A stretch of DNA of 42,793 bases from a virus (Duplodnaviria > Heunggongvirae > Uroviricota > Caudoviricetes), in the IMG/VR virus record IMGVR_UViG_2667527787_000008. The stretch is one strand, 5' to 3'. The notes beneath the pieces are model-generated. The model had not been told where the DNA came from. It did no database searches and saw nothing but the letters and a program-made list of their open reading frames with translations. Both the position numbers and the translations under genes were made by a program. This document shows positions 14,350-17,495 of the stretch, in pieces. Position 1 is the first letter of the stretch; each line of letters starts with the position of its first letter.

Positions 14350-14949
14350 ATGGCGCACGAACTACAACTCATCAAGCAGTCATCAGGAATCCTGATCCCC
14401 GCGACGCCGGAGACCAGCGATATTCTGCAATCAAAAATCAAACTCGGCGCCGTGCTGGTAGCCGACTTCAAACAGGTCCGCAATCCGGCTTTCCACCGCC
14501 GCTTCTTCGCGCTTTTAAACCTCGGGTTCGAATACTGGGAGCCAACCGGCGGGGCGATCTCTTCCAACGAACGCAAGCTGGTGACCGGCTATGCCAGATT
14601 TCTGGCCTCCTACGGCGGGAACGAAGGGGCGCTGCTGGATGCCGCTGAGCAATATCTCGAGCGCATCGCTGATAAGCGCACGGGCAGCATCAGCGCCTGC
14701 AAGTCATTCGACGCCTACCGCGCCTGGGTAACCATCGAATCCGGCCACTACGACGCGATACAGCTGCCTGACGGCACCCTCCGCAAACACCCCCGCAGCA
14801 TCGCCTTCGCCAATATGGACGAAACCGAGTTCCAGCAACTCTACAGGGCCGCACTCGATGTTCTGTGGCGTTGGATCCTGTCCAGGGCATTCAAGAGCCG
14901 TAGCGACGCGGATAATGCCGCTGCGCAGCTCATGAGCTTCGTGGGGTGA
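14350..14949 (+). CDS. Hypothetical nin-region protein (199 aa)
   Basis: ORF with good coding character; position corresponds to ybcN/ninB-type genes of DLP12-like prophages; family not confirmed. Confidence 0.5.
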   Translation: MAHELQLIKQSSGILIPATPETSDILQSKIKLGAVLVADFKQVRNPAFHRRFFALLNLGFEYWEPTGGAISSNERKLVTGYARFLASYGGNEGALLDAAEQYLERIADKRTGSISACKSFDAYRAWVTIESGHYDAIQLPDGTLRKHPRSIAFANMDETEFQQLYRAALDVLWRWILSRAFKSRSDADNAAAQLMSFVG

Positions 14950-15155
14950 TGCCGATGAAAGAAACATGGTTCCAGCACACCGAGTGCACCACGCAGCAGG
15001 CCGACGAGCTCATGGCGGAATACCGGCGCCGCGGCGTGAAGGTAGAGCGAAGCCTGAATCCCGATTACGTCACCTGGACCGTCAGCGCCCGGCTGCCGGA
15101 GGCGCACCGGCAGGAACGTACGCCGCGGTCACTCCGTCAGAAGGTCTGGGGGTGA
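14946..15155 (+). CDS. Hypothetical small nin-region protein
   Basis: 69 aa ORF whose start overlaps the previous stop. Confidence 0.3.
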   Translation: MMPMKETWFQHTECTTQQADELMAEYRRRGVKVERSLNPDYVTWTVSARLPEAHRQERTPRSLRQKVWG

Positions 15156-15157
15156 GC

Positions 15158-15448
15158 ATGGCGGATTTACGCAAAGCTGCGCGCGGTCGCGAATGTCAGG
15201 TTCGGATCCCCGGCGTGTGCAACGGCAACCCAGACACAAGCGTGCTGGCGCATATTCGCCTGGCCGGGCTGTGCGGTACCGGAATTAAGCCGCCTGATCT
15301 GATTGCCACCATTGCATGCAGCAGCTGTCACGACGAAATCGACCGCCGCACTCGCCTGGTCGACGCGGATTATGCAAAGGAGTGCGCGCTGGAGGGCATG
15401 GCCCGCACGCAGGTTATCTGGCTGAAAGAGGGGAAGGTGAAAGCGTGA
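15158..15448 (+). CDS. ybcO: YbcO-like Cys-rich nin-region protein (DUF1364-type)
   Basis: 96 aa [37 protein letters not shown]...[12 protein letters not shown]...; closely resembles DLP12 YbcO, located just upstream of rusA. Confidence 0.6.
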
Positions 15449-15807
15449 GCGAGTACAAAATCACATTGCCGTGGCCACCGAGTAATAACCGCTATTACCG
15501 ACACAATCGCGGGCGTACGCACATCAGCACGGAAGGGCAGGCTTACCGCGACCGCGTGGCCCAAATCATCAAAGACCAGCTGCTGGATATCGGCATCTCC
15601 GGCCCGGTGAAGATTCGCATCGAGTGCCATATGCCTGCCCGCCGCCGCCGTGACCTGGACAACCTGCAGAAGGCCGCGTTCGACGCGCTTACTAAGGCCG
15701 GATTCTGGCAGGACGATCAGCTGGTGGACGACTACCGCGTTATACGGATGCCCGTCGTCAGGGGCGGCAGGCTGGAGCTGACCATCACCGAACTGGGGGA
15801 CTTATGA
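15445..15807 (+). CDS. rusA: Holliday-junction resolvase RusA
   Basis: 120 aa from GTG; [33 protein letters not shown]...[26 protein letters not shown]...[12 protein letters not shown] is near-identical in pattern to E. coli RusA. Confidence 0.85.
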
Positions 15808-15944
15808 CATCAGAACTGATTGAGGTAATCCGCATGCGCTGGACACGCCTCCGCATTTATCGCCGCCCGGGTTCGGTGCTGGTGGACTACCGCATTCTTC
15901 GCAATTTTATTCGCATTAACCAGTTGGCAGGAGCTGCTGCATGA
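15804..15944 (+). CDS. ylcG: YlcG-like small protein (46 aa) nested between rusA and Q
   Basis: ATGA overlaps at both ends (rusA stop/start, stop/Q start); [46 protein letters not shown]; same position and size as DLP12 ylcG. Confidence 0.4.
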
Positions 15945-16771
15945 ACCTCGAAAACACCGTGAAATACCACTTCGCCAAATCGACGCTGATTAGCGACTCT
16001 CCGCGCGCTACGGCCTCCGACTCGCTGACCGGAACGGACATCATGGCAGCCATGGGCATGACCCAGGAACGCGCCGCCATGGGCTACAGTGCCTTTCTCG
16101 GAAAGATGGGCATCAGCAACAACGATCGGGAGAGAGCGATCGAGCTGCTGGCCCAGTATGCGCTGACAAAATGCGATAGCGTGGCTGCCCTGCGCAAACT
16201 GGACGCTGGGGTTAAACCGCTGGTGATGCGCCAGCTTGCTACCTTCGCTTTTGAGGACTATTCCCGCAGCGCCGCCAGCGTCAAGAGGTGCGAATGTTGC
16301 GCAGGGCAGGGGTTCATTGAGGCTGACGTTTTTAGTATGAAAACCAGCATCTCTGGCTGCGCAAAAGACATCATTCAAAAATCAAAAAAATGGGGGCTGA
16401 AGGTTATCCCTTCGCAGCATCAGAATCGGCGTGAGGTGAAAGAGGTGGCCCGGGTGCTGTGCTCGGCCTGCAAAGGGAAGAAGGTCGTCAGCTGCGCATG
16501 TAATGACTGCCAGGGGCGCGGAAAAGCTGTCAGCAAGACGCTGACAGAAAAGCAGGGCGCGCCGGTGATGGCCGACTGCAAGCGCTGCGGCGGGCGCGGG
16601 TATGAGCGGATCCCCTCGACTGAGGCATATGCGGCTGTTTGCCTTATTACCGACGCCATTACTCTGGACACCTGGAAAAAGTCAGTGAAGCCGTTTTACG
16701 ACCGGCTGATCACCAAATTCGACATGGAAGAAGCGTGGGCCGAATCGCAACTGCGAGCAATAACTCGATAA
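15941..16771 (+). CDS. Late-gene antiterminator Q (zinc-finger type)
   Basis: 276 aa with several CxxC pairs (CECCAGQG, CSACKG, CACNDCQGRG, CKRCGGRG); immediately upstream of the lysis cassette. Confidence 0.7.
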   Translation: MNLENTVKYHFAKSTLISDSPRATASDSLTGTDIMAAMGMTQERAAMGYSAFLGKMGISNNDRERAIELLAQYALTKCDSVAALRKLDAGVKPLVMRQLATFAFEDYSRSAASVKRCECCAGQGFIEADVFSMKTSISGCAKDIIQKSKKWGLKVIPSQHQNRREVKEVARVLCSACKGKKVVSCACNDCQGRGKAVSKTLTEKQGAPVMADCKRCGGRGYERIPSTEAYAAVCLITDAITLDTWKKSVKPFYDRLITKFDMEEAWAESQLRAITR

Positions 16772-16866
16772 AGCACCAATTAATCGCTGTCGATTTTATC
16801 GTGAGCTATTTACTTTTCCCGAATCTGTGTTAATTTCTCTCCAACGATGGGTTACTGCCTTCGTTT

Positions 16867-16905
16867 AAAGCCCTGCGGTTAACCCCGCGGGGCTTTGCCG
16901 TTTCT
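16867..16905 (+). terminator. Putative intrinsic terminator downstream of Q
   Basis: Hairpin GCCCUGCGG-UUAAC-CCGCGGGGC (one G-U pair) followed by a U-rich tract. Confidence 0.4.
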
Positions 16906-17151
16906 GGAGGGTATGAAAATGTAGAGTAGAACGGACACACCGTAGCCGAAAGGCAATGCAGCAGTCATGATGCTGCCCCGAGTCGCCATTGAGCGAGCCT
17001 GTGTAGTGACGGGTCAGGGTTCATAGATTAAAAATAGCTCCGGTAAAGCAGCGCGAAAGCCAGACGCGCACCGGTGATAAGCGGCGATGATGCGACAGCA
17101 GCTCAAGGGCATGAGCGTGGCCACTCCGGGAAGTGGCAAAGAATTTATAGA

Positions 17152-17180
17152 GGCTCGCATACGCGGGCCTTTTCTTTTTC
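17152..17180 (+). terminator. Putative tR-prime-like terminator upstream of the lysis genes
   Basis: Imperfect hairpin GGCTCGC-ATAC-GCGGGCC followed by TTTTCTTTTTC; the late promoter/qut site probably lies between the two terminators. Confidence 0.4.
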
Positions 17181-17279
17181 AGGCTCCGGGAAACCTCCTC
17201 AACAAGCCTTGTTGTTAATGCAGCCCGAGAGCCTGATCCCCATTACACATAGCACCCCGAAATAATCGGAGGTGAGAGC

Positions 17280-17495
17280 ATGTTACGCATGGAAAAACTA
17301 ACCACTGGCATCGCCTATGGTGCATCAGCGACTAACGCTGGTTACTGGAGCCTGCAGTTGCTTGACCAGGTGTCACCATCGCAGTGGGCAGCCATTGGTG
17401 TGCTTGGCAGCCTGGTGTTCGGGCTGCTGACGTATCTGACAAACCTGTATTTCAAAATCAAAGAGGACCGGCGCAAAGCCGCCAGGGGGGAATAG
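17280..17495 (+). CDS. Pinholin, phage-21 S-type holin with dual-start motif
   Basis: 71 aa [71 protein letters not shown]; Met1 and Met4 starts. Confidence 0.8.

Follow-up and report, generated by a model that had tools for sequence, protein, structure and literature searches.

The window analysed here, a stretch of viral DNA of 42,793 nucleotides, carries a short open reading frame (ORF) lodged between rusA and the antiterminator gene Q, and the question it raises is what this frame is: (i) a gene whose protein product matters in its own right, (ii) a translated bridge between rusA and Q whose peptide has no function, (iii) an untranslated ORF that is open by chance, or (iv) the imprint of a conserved RNA element or of a gene on the opposite strand. 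A preliminary description, made from the sequence, had drawn attention to the ORF, to the overlaps at both of its ends and to its place, which it likened to that of ylcG in prophage DLP12. We consider the first answer very probable: the frame would be a genuine protein-coding ylcG, belonging to the accessory genes that a lambdoid prophage has in its nin region, carried on the NinB-to-Q message and specifying a basic hairpin product.

The reading frame and its operon

The sequence and the ORF coordinates agree on an ORF of 46 aa nested between rusA and Q with an ATGA at each end, as the preliminary description had it (Table 1). The first ATGA carries the rusA stop (TGA, 15805-15807) together with the ylcG start, and the second carries the ylcG stop (TGA, 15942-15944) together with the start of the 276-aa Q (ATG at 15941). 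Within the open stretch of its frame, the ATG at 15804 is the sole start codon before the conserved motif of the family. An upstream extension of ylcG, or its fusion with rusA by a frameshift, was considered and rejected: upstream of ylcG, its frame stays open over 36 codons in the window but over no more than 3-5 in several relatives.

Table 1. Features of the rusA-ylcG-Q region, with positions counted from the first letter of the window
Feature	Position	Strand	Evidence and remarks
Nin-type gene chain, DUF1367/NinB to Q	14350..16771	+	ORF coordinates, junction sequences, family matches
rusA, Holliday-junction resolvase, upstream partner	15445..15807	+	PF05866, NF007305
Shine-Dalgarno-like CUGGGGGA for ylcG	15788..15800	+	Within the last rusA codons; duplex -8.4 kcal/mol
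rusA stop/ylcG start ATGA	15804..15807	+	Sequence; NTGA in 28/28 loci
ylcG	15804..15944	+	46 codons plus stop; ORF list, NF033498, PHROG 2705, dN/dS, AF2 model
Q Shine-Dalgarno GCAGGAGC	15926..15933	+	In ylcG codons 42-44 (Ala-Gly-Ala); duplex -6.6 kcal/mol
ylcG stop/Q start ATGA	15941..15944	+	Sequence; NTGA in 20/28 loci
Late-gene antiterminator Q, 276 aa, PF03589 type	15941..16771	+	PF03589, PHROG 127

RusA matches PF05866 (E = 7.7e-21) and NF007305 (232.9 bits against a cut-off of 200), and its residues 1-119, counted from the GTG at 15445, align with positions 1-119 of the 120 in the NF007305 profile. Q matches PF03589 (E = 1e-43) and PHROG 127 (E = 1.8e-100), in the latter case with residues 1-276 on profile positions 1-252 of 253. 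The boundaries of both genes are supported, since these profile alignments begin at position 1. The chain to which they belong comprises six genes separated by gaps of at most 2 nt, in the order DUF1367/NinB, an ORF of 68/69 aa, ybcO, rusA, ylcG, and Q. Overlaps of 4 nt are the rule throughout this nin-type operon, and the GTG start of rusA at 15445 itself overlaps the ybcO stop as GTGA. Such overlaps are typical of the whole operon and so tell us little that is specific to ylcG.

The region from 14350 to 16771 has the same overlapping-chain architecture as the ninR region of phage lambda, where small delayed-early genes are joined by ATGA-type overlaps just upstream of Q, and where the genes before Q are ninG, ninH, and ninI. 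Kroeger and Hobom reportedly described that region in 1982 under the title 'A chain of interlinked genes in the ninR region of bacteriophage lambda'.

The length of the ylcG ORF is not significant when taken alone. At the local base composition, 46 successive codons would be free of stops with a probability of about 0.13, and the ORF stands in a crowd: the 3-kb neighbourhood is overlapped by 53 ORFs that reach 20 aa or more, and many of them are spurious.

Membership in the YlcG family

Judged from its sequence, the ORF is an already known and catalogued small prophage gene of the YlcG family. The NCBIfam model NF033498 ('YlcG family protein') gives it a score of 85.3 bits against a cut-off of 30 (E = 1.7e-24), aligning residues 1-40 with positions 1-40 of a 41-position profile, and PHROG 2705 matches it with E = 6.7e-27, residues 1-45 lying on profile positions 1-45 of 46. 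A search against a local copy of Pfam-A returned no match for the 46-aa protein of the window; homologues in a large protein collection bear the precomputed Pfam label PF26818. The 239 homologues found in that collection are mostly 46 aa long and bear the NCBI name 'YlcG family protein'. Wherever a named record has a plausible source, it comes from Enterobacteriaceae.

Members of the family are single-domain proteins of about 46 residues with the core R.RW.RLR.YR.PG(S/T).L.DYRIL.N. The protein encoded in the window has 46 residues and carries the residue of every invariant column in an alignment of 73 sequences (R12, W13, L16, L26, V27, D28, Y29, R30, L32, N34, R37, I38, and G43). Its gene also occupies the position characteristic of the family, in the nin region, with a resolvase-type gene ahead of it and Q immediately behind, and the same gene neighbourhood is found in DLP12, Gifsy-1/2, HK225, mEp237, and a Klebsiella phage. 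In the HK225 record, the ylcG CDS is unannotated.

The exact ylcG sequence of the window is already annotated in RefSeq, and curated NCBIfam, Pfam, and PHROG models exist for the family. In 16 complete E. coli RefSeq genomes, the 1-kb surroundings are 99.8-99.9% identical to the window and the 141 nt of ylcG are 100% identical; in 16 of 16, PGAP annotates ybcO, rusA, a 'YlcG family protein' (WP_053271629.1), and an antitermination protein, with the same 4-nt overlaps. By tblastn, the family was found in 75 of 50,697 phage records, among them Gifsy-1, Gifsy-2, HK225, mEp237, several phages named 'Lambda_ev', and Klebsiella and Enterobacter phages. An exhaustive profile search of 1.84 billion representatives yielded 72 clusters (at 50% identity), nearly all of 40-65 aa; the longer clusters look frameshifted, chimeric or over-extended, and no informative domain fusion was seen among the 72.

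DLP12 carries ylcG in the same place, straight after rusA and with the same ATGA overlap, in the order ybcO-rusA-ylcG-Q, as the preliminary description had supposed. The alignment that it had proposed was made: the DLP12 protein (b4509, YP_588439.1), which like that of the window has 46 aa and the core R.RW.RLR.YR.PGSVL.DYRIL.N, is 55% identical to it over 40 residues. The equivalence of the ORF with ylcG is borne out by the NF033498 score, by this identity with the K-12 protein, by the shared place and rusA overlap, and by the RefSeq annotation. The two loci differ downstream: DLP12 has an 85-nt spacer and then quuD, a Q of 127 aa and of the PF06530 type, whereas in the window ylcG directly overlaps the 276-aa Q of the PF03589 type. 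DLP12 retains a vestigial ATGA that opens an ORF of only 8 codons.

In Gifsy-1, STM2618 (YP_001700622.1) is 79% identical to the window protein over residues 1-43. It likewise shares 4 nt with the gene on either side and has the antiterminator Q as its immediate downstream neighbour, but the gene before it encodes NinG instead of RusA and its Q belongs to PF06323. A note in the Gifsy-1 record ties this copy to YLCG_BP82, ORF45 of phage 82. The mEp237 locus (gp54, YP_007111427.1) resembles the window in gene order (DinI, NinB-like, a small ORF, ybcO-like HNH, RusA, YlcG, and a 276-aa Q), and both of its ylcG junctions are 4-nt overlaps. Its Q is 82% identical to that of the window, but its YlcG falls on the DLP12-like branch and matches the window protein with 62% identity over only 29 residues, so that a mosaic breakpoint lies at the ylcG borders.

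Conservation across 28 loci and the competing explanations

We compared 28 loci, consisting of the window, DLP12, 20 loci from enterobacterial genomes, and six phages. The enterobacterial loci were obtained by a pattern scan with one genome per species; a 21st (L022), a truncated contig of 667 nt, was left out. Together the 28 loci span at least 13 genera. The ylcG frame is open in every one of them, is 43-48 aa long and starts at the homologous codon, and the core motif R.RW..LR.Y..(P/R)GS/T.L.DYRIL.N is present in nearly all.

The start codon varies between ATG, GTG, and TTG (7 of 28 are non-ATG) and is never lost, and the 5' junction has the form NTGA in all loci (ATGA in 21, GTGA in 4, and TTGA in 3), whatever the upstream gene. 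The latter encodes a DLP12-type RusA in 9 loci, NinG in 12, a RusA of a second clade in 3, and two unidentified small proteins in 2 loci each. Q follows ylcG in 28/28 loci and belongs to PF03589 (14 loci), PF06323 (10) or PF06530 (4), three families with no detectable similarity to one another; ten combinations of upstream and downstream genes were observed. At the 3' junction, NTGA is found in 20 loci, TAATG in 3, an 11-nt overlap in 1 (Gifsy-2), and a gap of 62-85 nt in 4, which means that the 3' end of ylcG overlaps Q in some way in 24/28 loci. The gap is found in exactly the four loci with a short PF06530 Q, namely DLP12, ev243, L019, and L023, and ylcG is intact in each. The spacer and the overlap are both common states among relatives. 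The chain of three overlapping genes put forward in the preliminary description holds for the window, as it does for most relatives; it is not a feature of DLP12, where ylcG overlaps rusA only and stands 85 nt from quuD.

A Shine-Dalgarno-like stretch precedes every ylcG start, with a mean duplex energy of -8.2 kcal/mol with the 3' end of 16S rRNA over the 28 loci, and a Shine-Dalgarno sequence likewise precedes every Q start (mean -6.4 kcal/mol over 28 starts); the background at random positions of the window is -2.3 +/- 2.6 kcal/mol. In the overlapping loci, the Q Shine-Dalgarno is a GGAG inside ylcG codons 42-44, and this location explains why the Ala-Gly near the C-terminus of YlcG is so highly conserved (A42 and G43 were invariant in our first alignment, of 18 sequences).

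Codon-level variation was analyzed in a core of 35 codons, from which the overlaps were excluded and which is represented by 26 distinct DNA sequences. Variable sites at codon positions 1, 2, and 3 number 19, 20, and 34 of the 35, respectively (Fisher p = 3.5e-6 for position 3 versus positions 1+2). The median pairwise dN/dS of YlcG is 0.15 (Nei-Gojobori, all pairs); on locus subsets matched to the controls it is 0.18-0.22, with medians of 0.12 for the RusA control and 0.09 for the Q control. For Enterobacter bugandensis, the closest non-identical relative, pN is 0.013 versus a pS of 0.22. In the two other plus-strand frames and the three minus-strand frames, between 10 and 26 of the 26 sequences carry stops. 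By these measures, the amino-acid sequence of YlcG is under purifying selection, which rules out an ORF open by chance and speaks against a bridge that acts purely in cis. The preliminary description had made the ORF depend on conservation of its frame in homologous prophages; that comparison, with the frame kept in 28/28 loci under purifying selection, leaves the proposal standing. The coding call is decided by the family match and the codon-level conservation, not by the length of the ORF.

Among the other explanations, the one that survives best, though we regard it as improbable, is that ylcG acts in cis only, as a translated bridge from rusA to the Q start that sets the output of Q and yields a peptide without function. 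Both ends of ylcG overlap its neighbours and the Q Shine-Dalgarno lies within its codons, as such a bridge would have it, and the orf45-anrP pair of the Gifsy-1 IsrK system offers a precedent: experiments demonstrated that a small ORF there is coupled to the next gene through an AUGA, mutational evidence established that translation of orf45 is needed for anrP, and conservation of orf45 is at the level of the nucleotide and not of the amino-acid sequence (PMC4825925). Furthermore, uncontrolled Q is toxic (PMC4825925), which makes a tight control of Q translation plausible. Like ylcG, orf45 is a small ORF (45 codons) of a lambdoid prophage, in its case one of Salmonella, and it has an AUGA in which its stop and the following start overlap (PMC4825925), but it is not homologous, occupies another locus, downstream of antQ, and has an unconserved amino-acid sequence. 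The pattern in ylcG is the opposite one, with amino acids kept while synonymous sites are nearly saturated (34/35; dN/dS 0.15), with a length fixed at 43-48 aa and with the core motif in nearly all loci. Moreover, no bridging is possible in the four gapped loci, where an intact ylcG lies 62-85 nt from Q. The identity of ylcG with the 'orf45' of Gifsy-1 was also considered and was rejected, as the ORF downstream of antQ is a different one.

It is very improbable that the frame is an untranslated ORF, open by chance in GC-rich DNA and annotated by propagation only. The likelihood of 46 open codons (about 13%), the many spurious ORFs around, the lack of a match in the local Pfam-A search, and the HK225 record without annotation would all fit such an origin. 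They are outweighed by the E-values of the two profile matches (1.7e-24 and 6.7e-27), by a frame that stays open over the same length in 28/28 loci of at least 13 genera, with variation specific to codon position and dN/dS far below 1, and by the Shine-Dalgarno before every start, the start codon being swapped but never lost.

Hardly credible, finally, is the proposal that the conserved element is an RNA (a structured leader or an antisense target for Q) or else a minus-strand gene: lambda Q is regulated by an antisense transcript, and an antisense ORF of 163 aa (15887-16378, minus strand) overlaps the 3' end of ylcG, but the RNA of 15770-15990 is predicted to fold less stably than its shuffles do on average (z = +0.95, with 164 of 200 shuffles folding at least as well), an Rfam search of the whole window gave no family at gathering score, variation is concentrated at the third codon positions of the plus-strand frame, the minus-strand frames across the core hold stops in 10-26 of 26 sequences, the antisense ORF is not kept open in relatives, and the sole promoter-like site found is a weak minus-strand match inside Q (16284-16257). 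As a gene candidate, the 163-aa ORF was rejected as not conserved: its longest open stretch in relatives ranges from 49 to 164 aa, with frame shifts.

Translation, product and possible role of ylcG

A protein-coding ylcG would be expressed as part of one uninterrupted delayed-early message, NinB-...-ybcO-rusA-ylcG-Q, on which ribosomes ending rusA would restart on ylcG and those ending ylcG would restart on Q, while the Shine-Dalgarno at each start would also permit independent initiation. We infer both the co-transcription and the actual coupling. The genes are on the same strand, their stops and starts overlap, and over the whole of 14350-16771 a consensus pattern scan detected no promoter- or terminator-like site on the plus strand. 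The overlaps are consistent with coupling, as is the occurrence of weak GTG or TTG starts at the overlap in 7 of 28 loci. Translational coupling of rusA, ylcG, and Q, which the preliminary description had taken the overlaps to imply, is plausible from the sequence and would be normal for nin regions; de novo initiation at ylcG and at Q is equally possible. Overlaps need not mean obligatory coupling here, because both starts have a Shine-Dalgarno of their own and no occluding RNA structure was found.

A study of HusR treats rusA-ylcG as a single HusR-activated operon, whose mRNA in stationary phase was more than five-fold higher in the wild type than in a husR deletion by RT-qPCR, and credits the stationary-phase induction of ylcG to Hemm et al. 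2008 (PMC12844172). The gene is also listed among those of an ASKA overexpression screen for glycogen phenotypes (PMC2853380) and among IS-disrupted genes of an evolved strain (PMC11471845). The literature search found no experiment on the function of the window allele or of any YlcG family member; full-text matches to 'ylcG' were mostly unrelated acronyms, the relevant ones being mentions at the level of the operon or in overexpression screens, and the supplements of small-protein papers and of a PIRT-seq paper contained nothing on ylcG. The NCBIfam model NF033498 carries the name 'YlcG_phage_expr'. The purifying selection, the Shine-Dalgarno sequences, and the cited induction of K-12 ylcG are indirect indications that YlcG is made as a protein.

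The predicted product is strongly basic, with 9 Arg among its 46 residues and a pI of 11.7, in keeping with the earlier remark that the ORF is Arg-rich. An AF2 model, built from the 73-sequence alignment without K-12 YlcG, has one helix at residues 3-18 and another at 22-45, which meet at the conserved turn Y-R-R-P-G (mean pLDDT 73.6, pTM 0.42), and with moderate confidence YlcG is predicted to fold as a two-helix hairpin. The best match in a sequence profile search of the PDB was an insignificant one to eL15 (E = 0.26), a Foldseek search of the model against the PDB and BFVD returned nothing with E < 1, and none of the PADLOC defence models matched YlcG. Helical hairpins match non-specifically in structure searches. 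This basic, helix-turn-helix-shaped hairpin would act in trans; here too, we infer the fold and the biochemical role. From charge and context, we tentatively suggest that YlcG might bind nucleic acid or a nucleic-acid enzyme, a possibility to which we give less weight than to its denial.

Lambda has a Q gene and is not known to carry a ylcG homologue; for this reason, and since tblastn detected the family in no more than 75 of the 50,697 phage records, Q does not need ylcG for its function. A bolder idea, drawn from gene position and charge, is that YlcG is a general accessory of the early-to-late switch. It is suggested by the location of ylcG directly before Q in all 28 loci, in front of three unrelated Q families and behind five kinds of upstream gene, and we consider it unlikely. 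If it were true, YlcG could act on a target common to all Q types, for which the paused RNA polymerase or late-promoter complex, the nascent late RNA, and the Rho/Nus factors are candidates, and it could tune the timing or the host toxicity of antitermination.

Records of ylcG go back to the phage 82/DLP12 rusA-region entries (YLCG_BP82) or earlier. Its recovery here illustrates that real genes of fewer than 50 codons can be retrieved by reading the sequence where ORF tracks and some phage records miss them. What is documented for ylcG is selection at the protein level, a constant placement before Q, and a Q ribosome-binding site within its last codons, and these make YlcG a small, well-defined target for work on small phage proteins or on the control of Q synthesis.

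The junction between ylcG and PF06530-type Q genes

Q, the late-gene antiterminator gene that follows ylcG, belongs to one of three families, PF03589 (as in the window), PF06323 or PF06530. The short PF06530-type Q genes start 62-85 nt 3' of ylcG, yet the ylcG stop is still ATGA. Three loci illustrate this: (i) in K-12 DLP12 and phage ev243, the ATGA at the ylcG stop opens only an 8-codon ORF (MKSEITIN, then a stop), and (ii) in locus L019, it is directly followed by ATGAACCTG, whose bases match the opening codons of Q of the PF03589 type. These sites look like recombination scars that a swap of the Q module at the ylcG/Q junction would have left.

Features described in this section and below
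Feature	Location	Strand	Remarks
68/69-aa ORF	window 14946-15155	+	between the DUF1367/NinB-like gene and ybcO; PHROG 1212 (unknown function)
Antisense ORF, 163 aa	window 15887-16378	-	TTG start; inside Q; overlaps last 58 nt of ylcG
Q, 276 aa	window 15941-16771	+	PF03589 match, residues 183-268
Q-holin interval	window 16771-17280		510 nt, non-coding; holin gene at 17280
Terminator-like hairpin	window 17149-17172		strong; 10-bp stem, T-run; within Q-holin interval
ATGA at ylcG stop, K-12 DLP12	L002 4868-4895
ATGA at ylcG stop, phage ev243	L028
ATGA at ylcG stop, L019	L019 2638-2702
PF06323-type Q, Leclercia adecarboxylata NCTC13032	L012 2638-3018		after ylcG
ylcG ORF, phage HK225	L026 2501-2638; NC_019717.1 41894-42031		intact, 45 aa
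Prophage block, E. coli VE-T2	L001; NZ_AP027960.1 2740573-2747573		ybcO-rusA-ylcG-Q-lysis

Q and its surroundings in the window

The Q protein of the window contains several cysteine motifs of the CxxCxGxG type, and its residues 174-221 resemble the DnaJ central zinc-finger domain PF00684 with a score (24.1 bits) below the cut-off of 32.7. On the opposite strand, GC-rich codon usage probably accounts for the antisense ORF; among relatives that share this Q family, the longest antisense run without a stop varies from 49 to 164 aa and the frame changes.

In the interval that separates Q from the holin gene, one would expect to find the late promoter, the Q-utilisation site and the terminator overridden by Q. 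Gifsy-1 and a Klebsiella phage carry tRNA genes at the corresponding place, whereas none is present between Q and holin in the window.

Upstream, the start of the 68/69-aa ORF overlaps the preceding stop, either as GTGA at 14946 or as TGATG with the ATG at 14949, the latter being the start chosen in RefSeq, and a 2-nt gap follows the ORF. Its product has no match in Pfam or NCBIfam; the ORF is another small conserved nin gene, to which its PHROG assigns no function.

ylcG in phage records, assemblies and probable prophage remnants

The HK225 ylcG, flanked by a RusA-like gene and by Q, has an ATGA overlap at its 5' end and TAATG at its 3' end; no CDS is annotated for it in the phage's record. 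In several further phage records, ylcG is listed as 'hypothetical protein' or left unannotated. The enterobacterial type of ylcG was also found in two Gram-positive assemblies, on a tiny contig (L022, 667 nt) of Actinomadura rugatobispora and in P0094, named Bacillus amyloliquefaciens; these occurrences most likely reflect contamination, not true host range.

The Leclercia Q is open for 127 aa only, compared with 225-229 aa in its relatives; it is probably truncated or pseudogenised, in a decaying prophage. The VE-T2 block is 99.9% identical over the 1-kb query, with an integrase gene about 1.1 kb away and an adjoining RecT fragment that the annotation marks as partial. The window has about 13 kb of early genes between its first ORF (1-1194) and the nin block, which makes the VE-T2 copy look like what a deletion has left of the window's prophage.
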